This document shows, piece after piece, positions 39,257 through 50,099 of a DNA stretch of 64,000 nucleotides. How positions within the stretch are numbered: position 1 is the stretch's first letter; every line of letters starts with the position of its first letter. The translations under genes and the position numbers were made by a program. This DNA is from Escherichia virus TH47. The notes under the pieces were generated by a model that did not search any database, was not told where the DNA came from, and was given only the letters and a program-made list of their open reading frames with translations. The stretch is taken from the sequence record MT446416.1. One strand, 5' to 3'.

Positions 39257-41251
39257 TTAATATTTTTTTGTGTATTTTATATTACCAGAGTTGTAAATCT
39301 TATAATATCCCAATACATCACAGCAAATTTGTCTCTCAGTTAAGTTAATATCATGACCTTTCTTGACCAATTTATGTTTTTGACATTTCTGACGTGAAAT
39401 CCTCTCATGTGTTTGTGGGTCATAATAAAAATATCCGGGTTCTGTATAGCTATCAAACTCAAAGCCAAGAACTGTATAAAGATCACCACTACTCCAATCC
39501 ATATCCGCATATGTCAATAATGATTGTGGATTATATACTGTTTCAAAATATTTTAGTAATTTTGATGCACCACCAACAACTGTACCGGATGAACAGTATC
39601 TGATTAATTCATATTCATAGTTTTTATCAAACCTTGATTTACCAAAGGTCATAACTGCAACTAAATCACTTCCATAGTAAAGTCCAATGTGAATACTTGC
39701 TTGTGCAACACCTTGAATATGGTGTGATTTAGTAAACATATTACTTACTTGTTTGTCTATATTTCTAACAGTACATTTTCTAGCATAAATTCTATTTGAC
39801 ACTAGAAGTTTATTCTTTAAACGTTCCTTGATAATTTTATTTGTTAATGGGTTATCCCATTCATCTTCATAAATGTGAATAAGATTCACCCCATGTTTTA
39901 AACAATCCAATACCTTATCTTGATGTTTAGTGGAATTTACATTTTCATCATTATGCCAATACACACCATTAAATTCAATAGCTAGATTACGGTCTGGGAT
40001 ATACACATCCAACTCTTTAGGTTTCAGCACTGAACGGTCGTTTTCTATAATTTGCATATTTTGTATTAATGATTTTATATAATCAACTAAATCTTTCTCT
40101 TTCAATGAATGACCATTATTTTTCTGACACTTACATTTCACTTTATGATTTTTATACTTACTATAAAACAATTCATCACAATACTCACACCAAAATGGGT
40201 ATTCGTCTGTATTAACTTTCATCATTAGGTCGGTGTTTTCAAATAATGGAATATAGTTTTTATCAATATTTGCAACAATGATATTATATCTTTCGTCTAG
40301 ACGAGCAAGTGACATTTTCTCTTTATACTCATCAGTCTGTGAGTAGTGTTCTGAACCATATCTATTTTTTGTGGTTTCTTTCATTTTTTCAATGATAGAA
40401 TTATTTTGGGCTGGGTGTTTTACACCATATCGCTCCACATTGGTATTATGAACTTTTTCCTGAACACTCATATTGCTCATTGGGTAAAATGAATTATACT
40501 TCAACGTGTTGGTGTTTTTTATTTTATCTTGGACAATTTTATTTGATAGTGGATTGCCACCATATCGTTCAAGATTTGTTTTATTGATTTTTTCACGAAT
40601 CGTCGGTGATGATAAAGAATACTCAGCACCGTATCTTAATATATTTGTGTTTTTGGCTTTCTCTTTTACTTCATTTCTTTTGCTTTGGAATTCAACACCA
40701 TACTTTTTTAAATTTGTTGCTTTTACTTTATTGAATATTTCAGAGTTTTGGTTTGGATATTCACAACCATATCGCTCTATATTAGTTTGTTTGATTTTAT
40801 CTTTAGTTTCTGATGTTTGTAAATTAGATGAGACACCATAACGCTCAATGTTAGTTTTTTCTTTCTTTTGTTTTACTTCTTGTATTTGGGACACATTAGA
40901 TACACCATACATATCCATTAATGTTGATTTTGTTTTATTAGTTCGATTTTTATAATACATTTCATGGCATACATTACATGTATTTTTCTTATTAATCACA
41001 TAGTCATCACAAAATTTATAAAATCCTTTTTGGAAATTTTTGTATCTTGCTTTTTTTCCGCAATATGCAGTTGGAACGGTTGTTATATCATTCATGAACA
41101 TATATAGAATTTTATATATTTCGAAATCAGTTTTTGGTTCTATTCCAAAAGTAGAAAGGAGAACCCTCACACGAGAGTCCCCTTTGTATAAATGTACCCA
41201 TGAATTAATATGTTTTGACAACAAAAGTTTTTTTAATTCTTCATTGTTCAT
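39257..41251 (-). CDS. homing-endonuclease-like protein with ten ~23-aa RYG repeats and a Vsr-like nuclease domain
   Basis: Cys-rich N-terminus; ten ~23-aa R/K-Y-G/N repeats; C-terminal LAIEFNGVYWH motif typical of PD-(D/E)xK homing-endonuclease-like domains. Confidence 0.6.
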   Translation of the reverse strand: MNNEELKKLLLSKHINSWVHLYKGDSRVRVLLSTFGIEPKTDFEIYKILYMFMNDITTVPTAYCGKKARYKNFQKGFYKFCDDYVINKKNTCNVCHEMYYKNRTNKTKSTLMDMYGVSNVSQIQEVKQKKEKTNIERYGVSSNLQTSETKDKIKQTNIERYGCEYPNQNSEIFNKVKATNLKKYGVEFQSKRNEVKEKAKNTNILRYGAEYSLSSPTIREKINKTNLERYGGNPLSNKIVQDKIKNTNTLKYNSFYPMSNMSVQEKVHNTNVERYGVKHPAQNNSIIEKMKETTKNRYGSEHYSQTDEYKEKMSLARLDERYNIIVANIDKNYIPLFENTDLMMKVNTDEYPFWCEYCDELFYSKYKNHKVKCKCQKNNGHSLKEKDLVDYIKSLIQNMQIIENDRSVLKPKELDVYIPDRNLAIEFNGVYWHNDENVNSTKHQDKVLDCLKHGVNLIHIYEDEWDNPLTNKIIKERLKNKLLVSNRIYARKCTVRNIDKQVSNMFTKSHHIQGVAQASIHIGLYYGSDLVAVMTFGKSRFDKNYEYELIRYCSSGTVVGGASKLLKYFETVYNPQSLLTYADMDWSSGDLYTVLGFEFDSYTEPGYFYYDPQTHERISRQKCQKHKLVKKGHDINLTERQICCDVLGYYKIYNSGNIKYTKKY
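40277..40939 (-). repeat. in-frame ~69-bp tandem repeats encoding the RYG modules
   Basis: RYG/KYG/RYN recur every 22-24 residues (protein positions ~115-323). Confidence 0.6.
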
Positions 41252-41277
41252 ATAGTTCTCTTTTTAAATGTTTAAAT

Positions 41278-42069
41278 TTATCCGATAATCATTCCAAGTG
41301 GTTCCCCACCATCTTTATATCGCTTCAACTGTTCTTTTAGTTGTTCTTGTAATTGGATACCTTCATTTCTTAATGTATCACCATCCATTGAAAATGTCCC
41401 TTGCGGTCCAGGCAATGAAGCAAACTTAGCACGGTTACGACCAAGCATAATCATTGCTTCAGACAATGCCCAATCACGAAGCCACGGGTAACTTTGCTGA
41501 CGTTGGAATAACAATGGTTCTGGGATGTTATGATATACATGTAATAATACTTCTTCTGTACCACGAATATCACGATCAATAATAAGTTTCTTAGTCATTT
41601 GGTTGAATTGGAATATAATTTCACGTCCAAACATACGACCAACCAATTCTTGAAATTGAAAGCTGAAATCATATGTTGTTAGGTCATATCCACCTGCATT
41701 CCTAGCAGACGTCAATAGATATGTATTTGTGAATGCCAATGAGAATGGGTCTACGCTGTTACCTGACCCAGAACTTAAATAACCATTACCATAACGATAA
41801 ATCTTTTTAACAATTTCTACTTCTGTTGGTAGCATATATACCGATTGTGAATCATAAAATTTCATATTTAAAAATGCTTCTTCTTTAGAAGCAGAACTCC
41901 ACGCTCTGTAATTTGATACAGCATTATCAATTGCAATTTCTAATTGACCATCAGTAATTTCTACCTCAACTGCACCTGCTCCCAACATTTGAGTGATAAC
42001 ATCTTTCAGTTTTTCACGATGATCAAAATTAGGAGCATCTGGGTTTCCACCCATATAATTGTAAGACAT
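41278..42069 (-). CDS. hypothetical protein
   Basis: 263-aa ORF; its GAGGTG SD lies in the 3' arm of the upstream hairpin. Confidence 0.5.
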   Translation of the reverse strand: MSYNYMGGNPDAPNFDHREKLKDVITQMLGAGAVEVEITDGQLEIAIDNAVSNYRAWSSASKEEAFLNMKFYDSQSVYMLPTEVEIVKKIYRYGNGYLSSGSGNSVDPFSLAFTNTYLLTSARNAGGYDLTTYDFSFQFQELVGRMFGREIIFQFNQMTKKLIIDRDIRGTEEVLLHVYHNIPEPLLFQRQQSYPWLRDWALSEAMIMLGRNRAKFASLPGPQGTFSMDGDTLRNEGIQLQEQLKEQLKRYKDGGEPLGMIIG

Positions 42070-42075
42070 AAAAAA

Positions 42076-42117
42076 AGCACCTCATTAATGTTTATATATA
42101 CATTATTTAGAGGTGCT
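42076..42117 (-). promoter_or_regulatory. SD-sequestering hairpin with TAAATA late-like motif in its loop
   Basis: Stem agcacctc/gaggtgct; 3' arm contains the SD; loop carries TAAATA 34 nt upstream of ATG 42069. Confidence 0.45.
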
Positions 42118-42122
42118 AATAC

Positions 42123-42350
42123 TTATTTTGAATTATACAAGCAGTACAGGTATACCAACGGAGTAAAATGTTCTGAATCTATAGCATATATTAACTGTGT
42201 AACATATATTCCGTATAAATCTCGACTTTTATCTCGGTACATTAACAATGAATTATTAAAGTATGGGTCAACCCAGTACTTTATATTATTTAACATCAAT
42301 GTATTGTTTCTGTATCCTGATAATTTTAAGCATTTAGCCAACTTTTTCAC
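42123..42350 (-). CDS. possible small ORF (75 aa), uncertain
   Basis: GTG start, overlaps upstream gene by 17 nt, no clear SD. Confidence 0.25.
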   Translation of the reverse strand: MKKLAKCLKLSGYRNNTLMLNNIKYWVDPYFNNSLLMYRDKSRDLYGIYVTQLIYAIDSEHFTPLVYLYCLYNSK

Positions 42351-42711
42351 AATTACTTAGTAAGTGTGTGATTACATCGGCAGTGAATGGTCCTAGAACT
42401 AAAACTTCTTCTCCATTACCGAAGATACTCAATGGTACAGATTGTTGTCCTGCTAGATATTCGATTTGTTCTAATTCGAAAATGTCATCAGCAGCATAAA
42501 CAACCTGTTCCATTTCATTATCTTTAATCCATGACTGCCAATGTTCTTTAAACTGCTTCGCTTCGTATTCCAGCACATAGTTAGGTGATTCTGGATTGTA
42601 CTGATGTAGCATTGTCATACCAGCCATGACCAGTTCTTTTGGTGATGGAGTAGAATCTTTCAGTACTACGATAGCTTGGATAGTTTTAACTTTAACGTTT
42701 TGAGCAGCCAT
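42334..42711 (-). CDS. hypothetical protein
   Basis: 125-aa ORF with AGAGGT SD. Confidence 0.5.
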   Translation of the reverse strand: MAAQNVKVKTIQAIVVLKDSTPSPKELVMAGMTMLHQYNPESPNYVLEYEAKQFKEHWQSWIKDNEMEQVVYAADDIFELEQIEYLAGQQSVPLSIFGNGEEVLVLGPFTADVITHLLSNCEKVG

Positions 42712-42723
42712 TAGATACCTCTA

Positions 42724-43032
42724 TTATAGAATGATTTTGTTATCAGGAACAATCAGTGCTGGTTTTTCTTCGATAGCCTTGATTGCTTCAACATAAGCTT
42801 CAACTAGTGCAGGGTTTGCATCACTGATGCTGATGATGTTGGATTTATAAAAAATAACGCCTTTTTCAGAACTAATGAATTCTAGGTAATCACGTAGAAT
42901 GATTTCACCTTGTTCGTCAGTACCTAGCTGTGCTGGGTAGTTAACTACTACTGCTTCAGGTGCATCATTTTGTAGAATTGCTAGTACTGGGCCAACGCTG
43001 TTGATGTTTAGTAGTTTAACGGTCATAGTCAT
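42724..43032 (-). CDS. hypothetical protein
   Basis: Start placed at ATG 43032 rather than TTG 43041. Confidence 0.45.
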   Translation of the reverse strand: MTMTVKLLNINSVGPVLAILQNDAPEAVVVNYPAQLGTDEQGEIILRDYLEFISSEKGVIFYKSNIISISDANPALVEAYVEAIKAIEEKPALIVPDNKIIL

Positions 43033-43051
43033 TTTTGTCAAGTCCTTTTGT

Positions 43052-43528
43052 TTATTTTATAATGTATAAGTGTTTTTCTGCATTAACCAGTCTGTGGTCA
43101 ATGATTTCTTTGATAACGTTCCAGTTACCACCGCCTAAATCGGCTCCAATTTTCGGGAAGTGTACATGAACAGTGCGTTCAACGTTACATAAGTAATTGA
43201 GTTGTTTGAAAACATCATCGATTGCATCATAACTCACATACTTAGAACCGTCATTACCATAGTACTTTTGGGTAATGCAGTTTGCGATAAGCAAATCATC
43301 ACTTATAGAAGAATATGAAATTTGTCCTGTTCTTAGAAATCCCATTTCCTTTTCATATGCTTTATAATCATCATATGCCATCGGGTAACGATTTCTTAGT
43401 TCTTTTGCAAAACCCGAACCCATCTTACCCTGTGCATTACAACCATGAGCGATTATATGCAACGCGGTTTGATCATCAGTAACAGTGTTGAACAATTCAA
43501 ACAAATTACCTAGGTGTTCATGTATCAT
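43052..43528 (-). CDS. macro-domain-like protein (ADP-ribose binding/processing fold)
   Basis: HGCNAQGKMGSGFA and FPKIGADLGGGNW resemble the two glycine-rich macro-domain motifs; GGAGAA SD. Confidence 0.55.
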   Translation of the reverse strand: MIHEHLGNLFELFNTVTDDQTALHIIAHGCNAQGKMGSGFAKELRNRYPMAYDDYKAYEKEMGFLRTGQISYSSISDDLLIANCITQKYYGNDGSKYVSYDAIDDVFKQLNYLCNVERTVHVHFPKIGADLGGGNWNVIKEIIDHRLVNAEKHLYIIK

Positions 43529-43537
43529 TATATTCTC

Positions 43538-43567
43538 CGAAAAGAAAGGACTCTGTAATCAGAGTCC
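43538..43567 (-). terminator. rho-independent terminator/attenuator
   Basis: ggactct/agagtcc stem followed by tttcttttc on minus strand, immediately before the macro gene SD. Confidence 0.5.
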
Positions 43568-43579
43568 TTAATTTATATT

Positions 43580-43837
43580 TTATTCTTCTTCACCGAATCG
43601 AATTTTTTTCAATTCTTTTCGTTGTTTGCGAGCAATGGTACTTTTGTGAAGTCTATTACCACGTTTTGTGTCTTTCGTGATGTACCATGAATCTTCTGGT
43701 GCATTATAATCACAATAACCATCTTCTGTAATCGTCCCTAAGAAAGCAGACTTTTTAGGAATGGATGTTTGAGCTTTAGCAGCGAATTGGCCTTTTGCTA
43801 ATTGTTCACGAAAACTGAGCATAATAGTATCTCCCAA
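43580..43837 (-). CDS. hypothetical basic protein
   Basis: 85-aa ORF, Lys/Arg-rich C-terminus. Confidence 0.4.
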   Translation of the reverse strand: MGDTIMLSFREQLAKGQFAAKAQTSIPKKSAFLGTITEDGYCDYNAPEDSWYITKDTKRGNRLHKSTIARKQRKELKKIRFGEEE

Positions 43838-43867
43838 ATTGTTACGAAGAACTTGTGTTCTTCATTA

Positions 43868-44110
43868 TTATTTAGGGTTGCTCGAAACCTCTACTGAAGC
43901 GATGAATGCCAAAATATCATCTTTACTGAAAGCTTCAATAATATAAGCAACCGCTTTATCGTACTGTTCTTTCTTAGTAGTGTATTCTTTCATTTTGTGA
44001 ATTTTACGTTGTGCTTTAACTTTTGCAGCTTCCATATCAGGCATTTTAAATTCAACACCCAATGTGTCAGCTAAATGTTTTGCACGAGATGATACTTTAT
44101 CAATATTCAT
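43868..44110 (-). CDS. hypothetical protein
   Basis: 80-aa ORF. Confidence 0.4.
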   Translation of the reverse strand: MNIDKVSSRAKHLADTLGVEFKMPDMEAAKVKAQRKIHKMKEYTTKKEQYDKAVAYIIEAFSKDDILAFIASVEVSSNPK

Positions 44111-44358
44111 TAATTCCAGCGACCTTCTTTAAGACCTTCAACGAAACCAGTACAGCCACCTGGAACGTAAACATCGTTTACGAAAATTTGTGGAACCTGT
44201 CGTACTGGCTCGCCACATAGTTCAGATAGTTTAGCACCATCAATACCAGCGGTAACAATATCGATAAACTCCATATCAAATTTGTTATTTTCACATACTG
44301 CTTTTGCAGTGTCGCAGAATTTACAACCAGTAGTGCGACCATAAATTTTAACTTTCAT
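44110..44358 (-). CDS. glutaredoxin/NrdC-like redoxin
   Basis: CKFC active-site CxxC near N-terminus and PQIFVND...GG motif. Confidence 0.65.
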   Translation of the reverse strand: MKVKIYGRTTGCKFCDTAKAVCENNKFDMEFIDIVTAGIDGAKLSELCGEPVRQVPQIFVNDVYVPGGCTGFVEGLKEGRWN

Positions 44359-44758
44359 TTCTTTTCCCTTTATTTCGTTGAAACATCGTAACAGCCTTTA
44401 TTATACTGTTACACATTCGTTCAGTCAAATACTTTTGACAATCTAGTACATCAATGTACATGAACTTATCCAATTCTGGGTGACTTCTACCATATCGGTT
44501 TGTGTAAGTACTCTTACACTCTAACTCTTCTGGTATAGGCTTATCTTTGGCTGTATAGAAAAATAAAACTAAACGTTTCCCCTTTCTATACGATACATCA
44601 CCAAGAAACAGAAGATCATCTTCATCGATTTCATATCCTGTCTCTTCGTAGCATTCGCGAACAGCAGCCTCTTTAAATGTTTCTGTACCTTCAGTTTTAC
44701 CTTTAGGTAAGTCCCAGTGATTCTGTCCGTGTTGTATGCCCGATAAGTATCTGACCAT
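44348..44758 (-). CDS. Nudix hydrolase (second copy)
   Basis: Nudix box GKTEGTETFKEAAVRECYEETGY; start ATG 44758 very close to a -10 element (possible short leader). Confidence 0.65.
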   Translation of the reverse strand: MVRYLSGIQHGQNHWDLPKGKTEGTETFKEAAVRECYEETGYEIDEDDLLFLGDVSYRKGKRLVLFFYTAKDKPIPEELECKSTYTNRYGRSHPELDKFMYIDVLDCQKYLTERMCNSIIKAVTMFQRNKGKRNES

Positions 44759-44834
44759 CACGATAAAATATTATACCACAACTATAACGCATAATCTTAT
44801 CTCTTTATCATCAAGTGATGTTCAGATACTAGTA

Positions 44835-44862
44835 ATTATATCAGAAGATGTTAACTTGTCCC
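44835..44862 (-). promoter_or_regulatory. promoter GGGACA-N16-TGaTATAAT
   Basis: Minus-strand GGGACAagttaacatcttctgaTATAAT just after the CCA-enzyme stop; a second TGgTATAAT lies at 44770-44778. Confidence 0.55.
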
Positions 44863-44867
44863 AGCTT

Positions 44868-45983
44868 TTAGAACATTTGCTTGATTGCTTCAATACGCAA
44901 TTCAGCAACAAAATCACGAATCTCTGATGTTTGGAGTTCACCATCTTTCACTAACTGCTGAATATCAGGTAATTCAACATCAGTATAACGATCATAAACT
45001 TTAATAATCAAATCTTCAAGATCAGAATCAATTTCTTTGTTCAAAATGAAGTTTTCCAGTACTTTGTAAAGGAAATCTTCGCCACCATTGTTTTTGATAT
45101 TCATCTCCAGTAAGATTTGTCCCATTTCAACGGGGGTCTTCTTACGGAAGGTTTTAATATCTTCACGGAAACGCTTGATGTAATTACTAAACTTCACGTA
45201 CTTAACTGGAACCTTAATAGAACCATTAAGTACTGAATCATTATTTACTTCTTCATTTTCAAGAAGTACTGTCCATAAGAAATATGGTTTATATTCTTCT
45301 GTACAATTTGCAGCGATAGCATCAATTAATTCCAGACGTTTCTTGGTAACTGGAACTGTAGTAAATGCCTTTTCGTAATAACCAAATTGTACCAGAGTTT
45401 TGATAAACTTGGAAGGGTTTTCTTCAGAAAGTGCTTTTTCGAATTCAACAAAAACACGATCTGGAACTAGATGGTCTAGTTCACCAGTACTAACCATATC
45501 TTTACACATTGTCATAGTATCATCATGGATTGTAAAGTCTGAGTAACGTGTAGCGAAACGTGCCAAACGTAGTACACGCAATGGATCTTCTTTAAAGTGT
45601 TCTGATACATGACGAAGTACTTTGTTCTTGATATCAGCTTTCCCGCCATAAGGGTCGATGTGAATCTGGAGTACTGGATCATACGCTATGCTATTTACCG
45701 TAATATCCCTTCTGTATAGATCTTGCTCTAGTGTCACGCCTTTAGTATTCACTTCGAAGCCACCGTAGCCAGTACCAGTTTTACGTTCGGTACGTGCCAA
45801 TGCGTGCTCATTACCCTCTGGACTTAGATACACTGGAAAATCCTTACCTACTTGCTTATAGCCAATACTTTGTAAGTACTTAATATCGGATTCGGTAGCA
45901 CCGACAATGACATAATCTTTGTCTTTTGCACGAATACCCATTAAACGGTCCCTCACATAGCCGCCCACCAAATACTTTTTCAT
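44868..45983 (-). CDS. cca: tRNA nucleotidyltransferase (CCA-adding enzyme), head domain only
   Basis: YLVGGYVRD...KDKDYV, EHALARTERK, GYGGF, TLEQDLYRRDITVNS, EDPLRVLRLARF match E. coli Cca as recalled; no HD domain. Confidence 0.85.
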   Translation of the reverse strand: MKKYLVGGYVRDRLMGIRAKDKDYVIVGATESDIKYLQSIGYKQVGKDFPVYLSPEGNEHALARTERKTGTGYGGFEVNTKGVTLEQDLYRRDITVNSIAYDPVLQIHIDPYGGKADIKNKVLRHVSEHFKEDPLRVLRLARFATRYSDFTIHDDTMTMCKDMVSTGELDHLVPDRVFVEFEKALSEENPSKFIKTLVQFGYYEKAFTTVPVTKKRLELIDAIAANCTEEYKPYFLWTVLLENEEVNNDSVLNGSIKVPVKYVKFSNYIKRFREDIKTFRKKTPVEMGQILLEMNIKNNGGEDFLYKVLENFILNKEIDSDLEDLIIKVYDRYTDVELPDIQQLVKDGELQTSEIRDFVAELRIEAIKQMF

Positions 45984-47047
45984 AATATACCTTCCTCTGA
46001 AAGATGTTTTTTTAATACAGTTAAGTGGTCTTCATAATATGTTACACGTATTAATTTAATAAAATTCTTTTCACAATATTGTGTCTTTATAGTATCGTTA
46101 TCCTTGATGTTTTTCAATTTATCTTCTCCACCCCAATGAGGTGATTTCTCAAAATGTTGTTTACCATCATACTCAATACAAATATCATAATCAACCAAAT
46201 AAAAATCAAATCTTAATAACATTTTATTTTTACAGTCACTAAATGTTTGTTCTTTATTAAATTTTATACCATTTTCAATTAAAAAACGTGTTATTTCTCT
46301 ACTAGCTCTGGATTCAGTATGTTCAGATGAGCATATTGGGCAACCTTGTTTTTTATTTTTTGCTATATGAAAATTTGGAATGATATAAAAAGAATTATTA
46401 TGTTTTTTACAAATTATTTCAACATGAGTGCTACTATTAATGTAGATGACTTTTGAATAGTCATATACATTACCATGAATTTCTTTTGCTCGTTCAACAA
46501 ATTCAGCGGTGGTGAATGCGTGTGCTAATCTGGTTTTTTCAAATCGACAAATAGAGCAACCCTGACCACTTTGTATATTACTAATTTCCATTTCATCAAC
46601 GTGACCACATTTTAAGCATTTATAAGTTAATTTGGTTCTTTTATCTTTAATTATTGGTTGTTCTAAAAGTAATTCACATTCACCAGTCATTAGACTTTTT
46701 GAAGTCTTATAAAGATAATATCTATAATTTGCATTGTCATATTTCCCAATGATATATTTCATACCTTTCGTTTTTATATCATTTATATTTCTTTTTGTAT
46801 ATATAATACCATCTTTTTCAACAACAGTTCTTGTAAAACTAGATTTCCATTCATCACTTGATGTTATAGCAAATCCTAAAATATTATATCCTTTTTCTAT
46901 TATTTCTTCAAAATGTTCTTTAGGTGTTTTTGATGTTTTAATTAATTTTGGTGATAAATCTTCGGGACGCATCCATTCGAAACGCATACCTAATTCTTCA
47001 TGGAAATATACCTTCTCGTTATTTTCATTAAAATAAAATTTATACAT
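45980..47047 (-). CDS. homing-endonuclease-like protein (zinc ribbons plus Vsr-like nuclease motif)
   Basis: CLKCGH...CSIC and CPIC zinc-ribbon pairs; RFDFYLVDYDICIEYDGKQHF motif shared with the 39257-41251 protein. Confidence 0.55.
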   Translation of the reverse strand: MYKFYFNENNEKVYFHEELGMRFEWMRPEDLSPKLIKTSKTPKEHFEEIIEKGYNILGFAITSSDEWKSSFTRTVVEKDGIIYTKRNINDIKTKGMKYIIGKYDNANYRYYLYKTSKSLMTGECELLLEQPIIKDKRTKLTYKCLKCGHVDEMEISNIQSGQGCSICRFEKTRLAHAFTTAEFVERAKEIHGNVYDYSKVIYINSSTHVEIICKKHNNSFYIIPNFHIAKNKKQGCPICSSEHTESRASREITRFLIENGIKFNKEQTFSDCKNKMLLRFDFYLVDYDICIEYDGKQHFEKSPHWGGEDKLKNIKDNDTIKTQYCEKNFIKLIRVTYYEDHLTVLKKHLSEEGIL

Positions 47048-47190
47048 TTTCTAATCTTATTCCCCCATCAACCAATCAAGCAAATGTTCCCAGAATCCTT
47101 TAGGCTTATATTCTGGGTATTCATATTCATCAGTTCCTTGTTCGGAAACACCCCAATCTTCTTCTAATACTGTAACCACAATGCCTCCAA

Positions 47191-47613
47191 TTAAATCAAT
47201 CTGTCACGTAGACGGTCGTAATATTTTGCATGTATATCTAGTATACACTGAAATGATGGATAGTCAATACTAAATGTATCATCAATGAACATGTACTGAT
47301 CAAGTGTTTCAGGACCATTATCAACAACTGGCAATGAACCTTCTTTTTTTGACAGTGTGTTCCACATCAACTCACATGTAGTATCGAAAATTGCGTATGT
47401 TAATTCTATCTTACTTTTTCTAAGTGTAATTAATAATTCATCATTCTCTTCTAACGAGTTTCGTATTTTTATACGTACAGTACCCTGAAATTTATTAGTG
47501 GTTAGTACTCTATATTGATTATACGAAATTATACCTCGTATTTCAGTACTGATTTCTTGTTCAGAAAAGAACCTTACTGTACTGTGGAAATTTGGTATTT
47601 TACGAATGTCCAT
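47191..47613 (-). CDS. hypothetical protein, paralog of next gene
   Basis: Shares QYxFIDDTF(S/G)xD(Y/F) motif with 47600-48013. Confidence 0.45.
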   Translation of the reverse strand: MDIRKIPNFHSTVRFFSEQEISTEIRGIISYNQYRVLTTNKFQGTVRIKIRNSLEENDELLITLRKSKIELTYAIFDTTCELMWNTLSKKEGSLPVVDNGPETLDQYMFIDDTFSIDYPSFQCILDIHAKYYDRLRDRLI

Positions 47614-48013
47614 TCAAATTCCTTTCGTATATATGGTATACGTTCATTATACTATTATATAGATCAAAGTCAAATCCAAATGTGTCATCAATGAACTGAT
47701 ATTGTAGATATTCTTCATATGAAGCATCAATTGGTAATGAGCCATTACGCACATCATCTGATTTAAAATCGTCAATGTATCTTAATGTTATGTCTTCATC
47801 AACCGTGATATCTATCATCAACGTATCGTCACTGTACCATAGGTTGTGTATACGGATGTAAAGTCTCTTAGCACGATTAAACCAAGATACATTGGTATAG
47901 CGATGAAGTTTGTCTAAATTGAAGAAAAAACCTGACTCGTTCTTACTTATGTTTTTAATATGTTCTGCAATCGGTTCAATTATATGAACAATGTTGAATG
48001 TTTTCATAAACAA
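47600..48013 (-). CDS. hypothetical protein, paralog of previous gene
   Basis: Shared C-terminal motif; tandem arrangement. Confidence 0.45.
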   Translation of the reverse strand: MFMKTFNIVHIIEPIAEHIKNISKNESGFFFNLDKLHRYTNVSWFNRAKRLYIRIHNLWYSDDTLMIDITVDEDITLRYIDDFKSDDVRNGSLPIDASYEEYLQYQFIDDTFGFDFDLYNSIMNVYHIYERNLNGHS

Positions 48014-48189
48014 ATCTCATAACGGTTTGTGTTTGGATTGTAGCAATAGGTATCATTAATTTTAACACCAGGTTTAAGTGTGATGGTTGTACCTACTTCA
48101 GTACTGGGTTCCGCATCACAGTAAATCATCACACCAACTCCTGCGAGTAAGGCTATGATACATACAATTACACATATGGTATATTCCAT
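48004..48189 (-). CDS. small single-TM membrane protein (holin-like candidate)
   Basis: Hydrophobic segment ICVIVCIIALLAGVGVMIY; GAGGAA SD. Confidence 0.35.
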   Translation of the reverse strand: MEYTICVIVCIIALLAGVGVMIYCDAEPSTEVGTTITLKPGVKINDTYCYNPNTNRYEICL

Positions 48190-48202
48190 TTCAATTCCTC
48201 GG

Positions 48203-48595
48203 TTATAAAAAGTAATTGTACATTTTATTGTACAATATAAAAAGGTCTTTCACATTATCATAAGTAATATTAGATACATCATGAATTAATGATAACTGAA
48301 AAAATGATGCTTCGTCTATATCTACTGGGATTATAACATCATCGTCTTCGTCCATTTTATTGGTGTAGTATTTTATGTGATCAGCATTCATCTCAATAGA
48401 GAACGCAAGGTTGGATTTTGTATAATCTTCAATTAATCCGATAAATTTAGATTTTTCATTAATAAAAAATCCAATCCCAAAACAACGGTTATCTGAATAT
48501 GGATAGTACCATCTATTAAAAACTAGGCTTTCAGGTAAATCATCATCATGTGTTGATACGAGAGATTTTACTACATCTACCCAAACATAATTCAT
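48203..48595 (-). CDS. hypothetical protein
   Basis: 130-aa ORF. Confidence 0.45.
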   Translation of the reverse strand: MNYVWVDVVKSLVSTHDDDLPESLVFNRWYYPYSDNRCFGIGFFINEKSKFIGLIEDYTKSNLAFSIEMNADHIKYYTNKMDEDDDVIIPVDIDEASFFQLSLIHDVSNITYDNVKDLFILYNKMYNYFL

Positions 48596-48648
48596 AATTA
48601 AAACTCCATAAGAAAAGGGACAGAATTAATCTGTCCCTTTATTATATC

Positions 48649-48981
48649 TTACTCTTCGTCTTCAGTCAAGTCTTCTTGAACTGGATGTTCTGGGTGGTTA
48701 CGGCGATGCAATTTGATGCTTTTGTCTTTACCTAAGACAGTTTCCATTTTTTCAAATGAATCACCAATTGCTTTGTATAAATCTGCATCATCGGCTGTAA
48801 CACTCTTACCGCCTGATGTTAAAGTTACGGAATATTGGTTCTTATGCTCTTTCTTCACATGAACACCAATATGCAGTACTGAAGAATCACTAAACTTCGT
48901 TAGTGCATTTGCTTCAGCATGAATTGCGTCATTGATTGCTGGAGTAATATCAACATTACCTTGGATAACTAAATCTAGCAT
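48649..48981 (-). CDS. ribosome hibernation factor-like protein (HPF/RaiA family)
   Basis: Collinear with bacterial HPF as recalled: GNVDIT, VTLTSGGKSV, DLYKAIGDSFEKME, KDKSIK; acidic tail. Confidence 0.6.
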   Translation of the reverse strand: MLDLVIQGNVDITPAINDAIHAEANALTKFSDSSVLHIGVHVKKEHKNQYSVTLTSGGKSVTADDADLYKAIGDSFEKMETVLGKDKSIKLHRRNHPEHPVQEDLTEDEE

Positions 48982-49005
48982 AATTTACCTACCTTTTTTT
49001 TAGTT

Positions 49006-49932
49006 TTAAAGATTACTAACTAACAATTCTGCACGGTTTCCTACTTGACGATACCATAGAGAATTCTTAATTTCTTTTTTGAACTTGTTATCATTTTGAT
49101 TATCAACGCTTTTCCATAATTTATTGAAAGTATTTAACTTATCAACTCCTAATGTAAATGCCATCTCAAATAAAATTCGTTGTTGTTCAGCCGTAAGGTT
49201 TGTTGCATTTCTTTTCTTCAATAATAAAACTAAATCATTATTAGTTCGTTCCATGTCAGACAATAAAAGTTTATGTGCTTGTGACTTCGTAATACCATTA
49301 CGATACTTACTTGCATCTGATTCTTTCTTTCCAAGATAATGTCCGTACCCAATAGTGAAGTTACCTTTTATATCACGATACGGATAAAATTTAGAATTTC
49401 GATATGGAACTCCAACTTTCCCACCAAGTAAACGTCGTTTGTTCTTGGACTGAAATTCAATAGAACCTTCAGCTTCTTTGATGTGATTGACAATTTCTGG
49501 ATCTTTATAATCAAACAGTACAGTCACATCTGGTAACAATACGTGCTTCAAATCCTCTTTTGTTGGGATAAAGATACCCTGAGAAGTATGAAGAGTTGCA
49601 TTTAAGTTGATGTTCTTCAACAAAATGACATAATCTTCAATCTGTACATTTTTAGGTTTAAATTTCTGTGCAATAGAATAATAACTATCACCAGGTTGAA
49701 CCGTATAATGTTTCTCGCTGCTTGGAACTGCTTTTGGTACTGATACCTTTGGTAGTTCCTGCTTTTGAATTTGAGTAAACTGTGGTTTTAAATTATGCAC
49801 CTGACTTTCGTCTAATGATGGTACATGATCACTTTGAGAAAAACCATAAAATCCAATAGCAGCGAATAGGGCTGATGAAACTAATACGCCTACGGCAATT
49901 TTAGTTTTCAGTGCTTTTTTCGCTTTTTTCAA
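49006..49932 (-). CDS. endolysin: N-terminal signal-anchor, LysM, T4-lysozyme-like (GH24) domain
   Basis: TM KIAVGVLVSSALFAAIGFYGF; LysM YTVQPGDSYYSIAQKF; catalytic EAEGS...YRDIKGNFTIGYGH; start likely TTG 49932 after AAGGAGG. Confidence 0.75.
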   Translation of the reverse strand: MKKAKKALKTKIAVGVLVSSALFAAIGFYGFSQSDHVPSLDESQVHNLKPQFTQIQKQELPKVSVPKAVPSSEKHYTVQPGDSYYSIAQKFKPKNVQIEDYVILLKNINLNATLHTSQGIFIPTKEDLKHVLLPDVTVLFDYKDPEIVNHIKEAEGSIEFQSKNKRRLLGGKVGVPYRNSKFYPYRDIKGNFTIGYGHYLGKKESDASKYRNGITKSQAHKLLLSDMERTNNDLVLLLKKRNATNLTAEQQRILFEMAFTLGVDKLNTFNKLWKSVDNQNDNKFKKEIKNSLWYRQVGNRAELLVSNL

Positions 49933-50099
49933 AACGCCTCCTTTGTTGGTTGTTAACAATGAGCAATCACAAAGAGGGCAAAGAGGCCATTTGCAAAAGC
50001 CTCATTGGACTTTCTACAGTACTCAGTTGTTCTTTGGAACATTTAAGTAGTATAGCATACTTTTTAGTTATATCAAGACCTATTTACCAAATAACCACA

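Follow-up and report, generated by a model that had tools for sequence, protein, structure and literature searches.

How did an endonuclease-like gene come to lie directly in front of the CCA tRNA nucleotidyltransferase gene (CCA gene) of a very large phage, and what might its product cut? The question arises in Escherichia virus TH47 (sequence record MT446416.1), a jumbo coliphage of the Asteriusvirus group (121Q, PBECO4). A stretch of 64,000 nucleotides (nt) of this record was analyzed and is called the window in the following. A first-pass annotation had reported a gene for a 355-amino-acid (aa) protein with two zinc sites and a nuclease motif, and within 8 kb of it a gene for a 664-aa protein with a paralogous nuclease core. 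The two genes had been taken to indicate ongoing invasion by endonucleases. The 355-aa open reading frame (ORF) was found exactly at its annotated position, on the minus strand. Compared with related phages, it is very probably a mobile homing endonuclease gene of the zinc-finger/Vsr family that would have arrived via homing-type gene conversion.

Relatives were compared over positions 44000-49000 of the window. This 5-kb query returned 36 phage records, the closest being vB_Ec-M-J (hereafter J) with 95.9% identity. Of the 36, A4 is the single phage that carries the gene in this place (98.9% aa identity), and about 30 other relatives match 78-79% of the query and are without it. The junctions were aligned with those of J, PBECO4, UE-S1 and 121Q. 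Without the gene the junction reads ...GATTGGTTGATGGGGGAAT-(GAT/AAT/AAC)-ATGAAAAAG, a clean empty site GGGGGAAT-RAY-ATG, and in the window it reads ...GGGGGAAT-AAGATTAGAAA-ATG[ORF]...TCAGAGGAAGGTATATT-ATGAAAAAG. The insert is nearly all ORF, and its guanine-cytosine content of 26.4% is the lowest among all segments of 1,075 nt in the 64 kb (mean 36.0, standard deviation 3.3). Two further variants of the gene were present in the exact-sequence cluster, and their contigs supplied the loci L019-L024. The leader AAGATTAGAAA and the downstream junction are common to all Asteriusvirus carriers. A 60%-identical orthologue (P0002) has the same ATGA junction 5' of a CCA gene. The contigs that carry it come closest, at 76%, to Salmonella phages of the Munch/7t3 type, and these phages are themselves gene-less. 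In a Munch/7t3-like relative (L006 405-1466, L007 986-2047) the endonuclease gene lies 3' of an HPF/RaiA gene with a 95-nt spacer, and it replaces three small ORFs (~960 nt) that stand between HPF and CCA in 7t3 (L008 560-1515).

The sequence on the CCA side of the insert is of a different ancestry than the rest of the backbone. The latter is about 99% identical to J across 29250-45669 and 95-99% identical beyond the 355-aa gene. Measured in 100-nt bins, identity to J was 94-100% across 43000-45699 (97-100% save two bins at 45500-45699) and mostly 95-100% across 47200-48299, but only 84-91% over 45700-45983. Identity to A4 was 98-100% over 45700-45983 and the insert, and elsewhere mostly 66-93%, with one bin at 57%; the A4 flanks as a whole are about 85% identical to the window. 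The insert differs from that of A4 at 4 of 1,075 nt (99.6% identical), and the first 300 nt of the CCA gene are 98.7% identical to A4 versus 88.5-92% to every gene-less genome. Informative sites of A4-type and J-type stood at 38:1 in 45684-45983 versus 7:189 in 44800-45683 (Fisher p 1.7e-35). The ancestry switches between 45669 (J-type) and 45684 (A4-type), that is, at CCA nt 300-315. The closest relative of A4 in this region reaches at most 84%. Locus L024 shows the same co-conversion pattern, with a carrier-type tract followed by J-type sequence from nt 315. On the simplest reading, an A4-like carrier would have donated the gene together with 300 nt to a J-like recipient.

Within this tract, one short segment is shared by every carrier. 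At CCA nt 265-300 all gene-carrying alleles (window, A4, L024, L019/L020 and L021) have CTATACAGAAGGGAYATTACRGTAAATAGCATAGC, and all gene-less alleles compared have YTRTATCGYCGTGAYCTNACAATNAA...; the complete 36-nt patch reads CTATACAGAAGGGATATTACGGTAAATAGCATAGCG. The differences include TAT>TAC, CGY>AGA, CGT>AGG, CTN>ATT and ATN>GTA, among others, in the codons YRRD(L/I)T(I/V)N. When the 300-nt tract was used as query, all 31 gene-less records aligned from position 32 or 37 on and missed the patch, and A4 aligned throughout. A corresponding difference separates the orthologous carrier L006 (AGA CGA) from gene-less 7t3 (CGT CGT). Beyond nt 300 the carriers lie on different backbones: the window, like L024, is J-type from nt 315, and the identity of A4 to UE-S1 jumps from 73% to 98%. 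L019 is UE-S1-like over nt 1-60 (98%), private over nt 121-240, 92% identical to carrier alleles versus 68-75% to gene-less ones over nt 241-300, and 95% identical to both A4 and UE-S1 over nt 301-360. Its patch is therefore an island inside otherwise unrelated or gene-less-type sequence. Judged from the alleles at hand, the smallest unit that is always co-inherited is the gene plus the patch. Since a genome with both the gene and a sensitive site would cut itself, a linked patch is what one would expect of the resistant form of the target. We thus regard the CCA gene as the probable target gene, and we lean towards nt 265-300 as the site of cleavage and immunity. A second candidate was rejected. 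In the window, A4 and L024, five synonymous changes private to them fall in CCA nt 16-36 (codons LVGGYVRD), and this segment was considered as an obligatory immunity site. Carriers L019 and L021 are gene-less-type there, so that these changes are not required.

Those same synonymous changes would suit another placement of the cut, in which the enzyme cleaves the empty junction (GGGGGAAT-RAY-ATGAAAAAG) or the first CCA codons, as intron-encoded enzymes do. The patch at nt 265-300 would then have hitch-hiked along, marking where a typical co-conversion tract ends. All carriers have their junction interrupted by the insertion, and this alone would make them immune; the prototype of this nuclease class, I-Bth0305I, cuts directly beside its own insertion site (PMC3239194). 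However, L019 and L021 have kept the patch while being gene-less-type at nt 16-36 and over nt 1-60 (98% to UE-S1). A cut at the junction also leaves unexplained why three backbones all switch ancestry within 15 nt past nt 300, and why a shared haplotype 5' of the gene is absent. We consider this placement rather unlikely.

With the cut at the patch, the course of events would be as follows. A carrier phage and a gene-less relative co-infect one cell. The enzyme, in which a clade-specific N-terminal domain and two CapR/DUF723-type zinc modules are combined with a C-terminal Vsr-like nuclease as the putative cutter, would cleave the CCA allele of the gene-less phage; the cut would most likely fall in or close to nt 265-300, among the conserved codons of the RRD motif, about 300 bp away from the insertion point. 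With the carrier genome as template for repair, the recipient would then acquire the endonuclease gene, the resistant patch and the 300 nt between them. We infer the activity of the enzyme, the double-strand break and the position of the cut from the pattern of alleles.

The protein itself fits this role in its composition. It matched PHROG 559 ('HNH endonuclease', E 1.8e-51) and PHROG 9084 ('homing endonuclease', E 2.4e-25), and a database search gave 1,298 relatives at E<=1e-5, most of them with DUF4379 and DUF723 (PF14311, PF05265) and several named 'very-short-patch-repair endonuclease'. In an alignment of 30 family sequences, the general plan was three to five repeats of about 60 aa followed by a nuclease domain of about 110 aa. 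The repeat consensus is TxEFIxKAKxIHGxKYDYSxVxYxNxxTKVxIICxxHGxFxQxPxxHLxGxGCxKC with invariant ligands. The 355-aa protein has two recognisable zinc modules, as had been claimed. A DUF4379 treble-clef zinc finger was detected at aa 133-168 with 31.8 bits (Pfam cut-off 24.5, E 1.7e-7), and the module 1 segment alone gave 24.6 bits for DUF4379 and 23.5 bits for CapR. This module (C144-x2-C147...C164-x2-C167, CLKCGH...CSIC) is diverged and retains its four ligands. In module 2, the CPIC motif (C236, C239) is paired with C213/H216 (ICKKH), and the ligands of both modules are invariant or nearly so in the family alignment. A local scan of module 2 gave a weak match to DUF4379 (E 0.037). The precomputed annotation of P0001, a 99%-identical protein, includes DUF723, which the local Pfam hmmscan of the 355-aa protein did not return; module 2 was assigned from the family alignment, where it follows the repeat consensus with the ending GCPxC. 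The two modules most likely read the DNA target, in line with the view of DUF723/CapR modules as DNA-binding repeats of phage homing endonucleases (PMC10448857). The first 112 residues matched no Pfam family. They are conserved with P0002 and possibly bind DNA as well. Scans of IMG/VR and of metagenome contigs for further members of the 355-aa clade gave distant family members only. Other zinc-finger/Vsr proteins occur at other loci of related jumbo phages and are 31-33% identical from end to end, N-terminal domain included. Examples are JP4 97405-98448, J 328707-329756 and seven places in Klebsiella phage KP13-7, with annotations that vary between 'HNH endonuclease', 'homing endonuclease', 'homing endonuclease EDxHD' and hypothetical.

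The nuclease motif FDFYL...IEYDGKQHF was located at aa 280-299, with the family-invariant residues D281, E292, G295 and H298. The C-terminal domain as a whole matches the family consensus ESKGE..I..FL...FDFYLP..N.CIEYDG.QHF....ND.IKN.YC..NNIKLIRI. Searches of the PDB by sequence with the whole protein, the family profile and a nuclease-domain profile returned nothing usable, AbaSI being the only match (E 0.024). The fold was therefore established through structure prediction. An AlphaFold model built on the family alignment had high confidence over aa 250-355 (predicted local distance difference test, pLDDT, 91-98), and Foldseek matched it to Vsr with a probability of 0.99-1.00. The C-terminal domain is accordingly predicted to have the Vsr-type alpha/beta nuclease fold. 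D281, H298 and D318 are invariant in the family and D294 is nearly so, with an extra acidic residue at E292. With the residue numbering of I-Bth0305I taken from and checked on an alignment to its structure (3r3p), D281 corresponds to D196, E292 to E206, D294 to the position of N208, H298 to H213 and D318 to D222. The sequence link to I-Bth0305I is transitive, leading from the family profile to the 664-aa protein (E 1.5e-5) and from there to 3r3p (E 0.0045). The label HNH, as used for PHROG 559 and in several GenBank records, was rejected as a misnomer, because no HNH family appeared in the Pfam and NCBIfam scans and the sole nuclease-like domain has a Vsr fold. The ORF is intact in every carrier found. 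Against the 60%-identical orthologue (L006), the ratio of nonsynonymous to synonymous substitution rates (dN/dS) was 0.21 overall, with 0.15 for the N-terminal domain, 0.23 for the zinc modules and 0.25 for the nuclease, at a dS of about 1.5, which is near saturation. Low dN/dS and intact ORFs argue for long-term function, despite a serine at position 249 that is discussed below.

The 664-aa gene lies close by, and the two endonuclease genes span 7.8 kb. Its product matched the Pfam family DUF7487 (E 4.4e-38) and PHROG 3339 ('homing endonuclease', E 4.7e-163). In BLASTP, aa 280-340 of the 355-aa protein aligned to aa 414-463 of the 664-aa protein with 16 of 61 identities (26%, E 0.009), and the 355-aa family profile matched the 664-aa sequence with E 1.5e-5 over 54 columns. 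A hidden Markov model of the nuclease domain, run against 541 six-frame segments of the window, found these two ORFs only (4e-46 and 4e-4). By these comparisons the shared motif is above chance and reflects remote homology, not close paralogy; as the 664-aa protein matches 3r3p directly, both belong to the same nuclease lineage. The earlier claim of a shared nuclease core was thus correct, but 'paralogous' overstates a similarity confined to about 60 aa at 26%, and the 664-aa nuclease is central (aa ~390-470) rather than C-terminal. The DNA-binding modules of the two proteins differ, with DUF723/DUF4379 zinc fingers in the one and DUF7487 repeats in the other. Nothing suggests an origin of one protein from the other within this genome. 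Residues ~475-664 of the larger protein (39257-39830) form a domain of about 190 aa that had no Pfam or NCBIfam match and was hit by PHROG 3339 and PHROG 29804 only.

The 664-aa gene was present in 2 of 42 related records (UE-S1 and ph0011). Several copies of its protein are filed under Escherichia coli accessions (contigs of 347-349 kb), which are probably phage genomes deposited as bacterial assemblies. Identity of the window to J is 99-100% across 29250-38250 and 42500-45500. In between, over 38386-42397, it falls to 78-88%, and identity to UE-S1 is 94-99%. The ancestry changes sharply, at 38377 (J-type)/38386 (UE-S1-type) and 42397 (UE-S1-type)/42403 (J-type). On this identity pattern, the tract is an import from a UE-S1-like donor, and it swaps in donor alleles of most of a dNMP kinase gene, a small ORF and a head-tail adaptor gene. 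Each endonuclease gene thus lies in its own imported tract within a backbone about 99% J-like, with A4-like and UE-S1-like donors, which bears out the notion of ongoing invasion. Two such tracts within 9 kb are in keeping with the observation that genetic exchange between phages has its borders at nuclease genes (PMC10448857).

Several observations weigh against homing as the origin of the 355-aa gene, or limit how closely it can be reconstructed. Directly 5' of the leader each carrier has its own backbone, L024 being identical to J there, and in none of the carriers does a shared haplotype continue 5' of the gene. Over the 145 nt that adjoin the insert on this side (47059-47203), the window has five substitutions of its own (47079, 47085, 47096, 47176 and 47197), all at sites where A4, J, PBECO4, UE-S1 and 121Q agree. 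At the end of the ~40-codon ORF, two of them replace an Arg, one by His and the other by Leu. The five changes could stem from a donor that is not among the sampled phages, from error-prone repair or from relaxed constraint. The neighboring 47200-47700 is 97-99% identical to PBECO4-type phages versus 95-98% to J, so that the 'J-like' backbone is mosaic to the right of the endonuclease gene. Together, the private changes and the PBECO4-like segment point to a real donor that is unsampled, and a strictly one-sided tract with A4 as direct donor was softened for this reason. Given the private changes and the lack of a shared upstream haplotype, the donor and the upstream end of the tract are uncertain. 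As to the patch, the window and L024 may share one homing event, which leaves about three independent tract ends and not four. Gene-less alleles, too, differ from one another unusually strongly over CCA nt 241-300 (J versus the others, 77-82% identity), and the patch could partly reflect a generally fast-evolving spot. As to the protein, the N-terminal third was poorly modelled (pLDDT 35-57, poor over aa 53-104), and the window, A4 and P0002 have Ser249 where the EDxHD motif begins with an acidic residue (the Glu of SKGE in the family). Taylor et al. described this Glu as a possible catalytic participant (PMC3239194). Finally, all four insert differences between window and A4 are nonsynonymous; this is compatible with relaxed constraint, but the sample is tiny and too small to weigh. 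Further patches of low identity to J were seen at 49000-49500 (65-82%), in the LysM/lysozyme gene 49006..49959, and at 48250-48500 (88% to J, 93% to UE-S1); no endonuclease gene was seen beside either of them.

Some of these points could be read as signs of a decaying or inactive remnant that moved with the CCA 5' end by ordinary homologous recombination, without a break of its own. Besides Ser249 in place of the conserved Glu and the four nonsynonymous changes, the lack in the N-terminal 112 aa of the zinc ligands of canonical repeats would fit decay, and the genomes are mosaic elsewhere too, as at 47200-47700 and 49000-49500. Yet the ORF has stayed intact in all carriers, and dN/dS is low in all three regions of the protein relative to an orthologue that has the same Ser. 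Moreover, the foreign tract is fitted exactly to the gene, and a second tract of this kind surrounds the unrelated 664-aa gene 5 kb away, as nuclease-driven exchange predicts (PMC10448857). A mere remnant is therefore improbable.

The homing reading also agrees with how the gene is built into its surroundings, a long run of co-oriented minus-strand genes in which it stands between the ~40-codon ORF and the CCA gene. The latter was identified by NCBIfam NF008137 (multifunctional CCA addition/repair protein, E 1.2e-82) and is annotated likewise in relatives. The endonuclease stop and the CCA start overlap (ATGA), a junction kept in all gene-carrying genomes including the 60%-identical orthologue, and the sequence GAGGAAGG lies in the last endonuclease codons, 7 nt 5' of the CCA start. 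With overlapping stop and start and a ribosome binding site supplied by the endonuclease codons, the CCA gene should stay undisturbed by the insertion. On the other side, the stop of the small upstream ORF abuts the insert, and the GGGGGA of this ORF now lies 13 nt 5' of the endonuclease ATG. A scan for expression signals of the gene's own found no terminators and no convincing promoter (22 promoter-like sites versus 16.8 +/- 3.3 expected), and the 11-nt leader leaves no space for one. In this long minus-strand operon, the gene forms a cassette without a promoter of its own. In L024 (3868-3987), the end of the small upstream ORF has a 1-nt insertion (GGGGTGAATAA versus GGGGGAATAA) that shifts its stop and leaves 39 codons, located right at the insertion junction.

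Long-term purifying selection and the stable association with the CCA gene across two phage groups could also be expected of a domesticated nuclease or DNA-binding factor, kept for the benefit of the phage in excluding competing phages, attacking a satellite or regulating the CCA operon, with mobility being secondary. There are precedents in CapR-type modules co-opted as repressors and anti-satellite nucleases in ICP1/PLE (PMC10448857) and in a T4-type homing endonuclease that can help immune evasion (PMC13096335). Nevertheless, the gene is missing from about 97% of related genomes and so is not needed by the lineage, and no defence- or satellite-related neighbors were seen among the surrounding genes. 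Marker exclusion, in turn, is what homing amounts to at the population level rather than a function apart from it (PMC2988022). We give domestication very little probability. The coordinates of all features are collected in Table 1.

Table 1. Features of the two endonuclease loci in the window (positions in the 64,000-nt stretch).
Feature	Coordinates	Strand	Remarks
355-aa endonuclease ORF	45980..47047	-	ATG start; stop codon included in coordinates
N-terminal domain, aa 1-112	46712..47047	-	without zinc ligands or Pfam match; covered by PHROG 559 profile
Zinc module 1, aa 113-175, CapR/DUF4379-like	46523..46711	-	C144, C147, C164, C167
Zinc module 2, aa 176-245, canonical DUF723-type ~60-aa repeat	46313..46522	-	C213, H216, C236, C239
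Vsr-like (EDxHD-type) nuclease domain, aa 246-355 (predicted)	45983..46312	-	D281, E292, D294, H298, D318
Inserted segment relative to gene-less genomes	45984..47058	-	11-nt leader AAGATTAGAAA plus ORF; net +1,072 nt
CCA tRNA nucleotidyltransferase gene	44868..45983	-	NCBIfam NF008137
Shine-Dalgarno sequence of CCA gene, GAGGAAGG	45990..45997	-	read from sequence
Co-converted tract, CCA nt 1-300, A4-type ancestry	45684..45983	-	informative sites 38:1
Candidate recognition/cleavage and immunity patch, CCA nt 265-300	45684..45719	-	codes L-Y-R-R-D-I-T-V-N-S-I-A (RRD motif)
Small upstream ORF, ~40 codons	47059..47181	-	123-nt coding sequence annotated in relatives
664-aa free-standing endonuclease gene	39257..41251	-	DUF7487 repeats, EDxHD/Vsr-like core aa ~390-470, further 190-aa domain
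Imported 4.0-kb tract around 664-aa gene	38386..42397		871 nt, then gene, then 1,146 nt

The class of gene found here is an ordinary one. Free-standing homing endonucleases are abundant in phage genomes, and bioinformatic work of 2025 has already described the present architecture. Some modest interest attaches to its association with the CCA gene, to how clean the natural co-conversion tracts are, and to having a specific target that can be tested. Two endonuclease genes in sharply bounded tracts provide a natural example of how local gene exchange is driven in 350-kb jumbo phages, and widespread labels such as 'HNH endonuclease' and 'hypothetical protein' are corrected. The strict linkage of gene and patch gives a concrete target prediction for a very large, uncharacterised nuclease family. 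Whether the comparative data already pinpoint a natural target/immunity site of about 36 bp in the RRD-motif codons of a phage CCA gene we consider evenly balanced. If so, this would be the first homing endonuclease combining a zinc-finger array with a Vsr nuclease that has a defined target, in a class that is large and biochemically untouched. It would represent a modular zinc-finger nuclease of the bead-on-a-string kind, with a code of specificity that could be deciphered, and the change from Glu to Ser would mark the EDxHD Glu as dispensable. Near-isogenic susceptible and resistant alleles are at hand in J versus L024 or the window.

Among known systems, the closest in architecture is a large outgroup of the EDxHD/Vsr homing endonucleases that had gone unrecognised and whose thousands of members are unannotated. 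In it, CapR/DUF4379/DUF723-like modules of about 60 aa are joined to an EDxHD/Vsr-like domain of about 100 aa (Nucleic Acids Research 2025, PMC12350094). The 355-aa protein shares with it the Cys/His zinc modules of about 60 aa, the C-terminal Vsr-like nuclease of about 100 aa that follows them, and phage hosts. The published examples lie inside group I/II introns of a virion RNA polymerase gene, whereas the gene described here is free-standing and intergenic; its product further differs in having two recognisable zinc modules, an extra N-terminal domain of 112 aa and Ser for the first Glu. The EDxHD prototype I-Bth0305I (PDB 3R3P), with the motif E170, D196, N208, H213 and D222 (PMC3239194), differs in several respects. 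It is intron-encoded in recA, binds DNA through NUMOD/helix-turn-helix elements rather than zinc fingers and cuts beside its insertion site; its E170 corresponds to Ser249, and the PDB searches gave no direct sequence match to it.

Hef-type phage endonucleases have been placed in the EDxHD family as well (PMC3239194). As cited in PMC2988022 and PMC3239194, Hef of the T4-like phage U5 (Sandegren et al. 2005) is free-standing and both adjoins and targets a conserved nucleotide-metabolism gene. By this description, it resembles the present case as a free-standing phage gene of the Vsr-like/EDxHD lineage (Taylor et al.) beside such a gene; it differs in being tied to nrd genes and in replacing mobE. 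By its consensus, LDVYIP...IEFNGVYWH, the 664-aa neighbor looks closer to the Hef type than the 355-aa protein does. Endonucleases that combine CapR/DUF723 arrays with a T5orf172 (GIY-YIG-like) domain, as in ICP1 and other phages, share the zinc-finger repeats and the position at boundaries of recombination tracts (PMC10448857), but their catalytic domain is T5orf172 and not Vsr-like.

In its behavior, the gene is most readily compared with the free-standing endonucleases of T4. These comprise seven promoter-less cassettes whose ORFs often embed signals of the downstream gene, and they cut hundreds of bp away from their own genes (PMC2988022). SegF, SegG and MobE are, like the present gene, intergenic promoter-less cassettes with a sporadic distribution, co-conversion of the adjacent gene and embedded downstream signals (PMC2988022). 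They cleave hundreds of bp from the insertion point, and the 355-aa enzyme would do likewise if the patch is its target. Their nuclease folds (GIY-YIG, HNH) and DNA-binding domains are unrelated to those of the 355-aa protein. In summary, the 355-aa gene is a free-standing member of an already described architecture that behaves like the seg and mob genes of T4.

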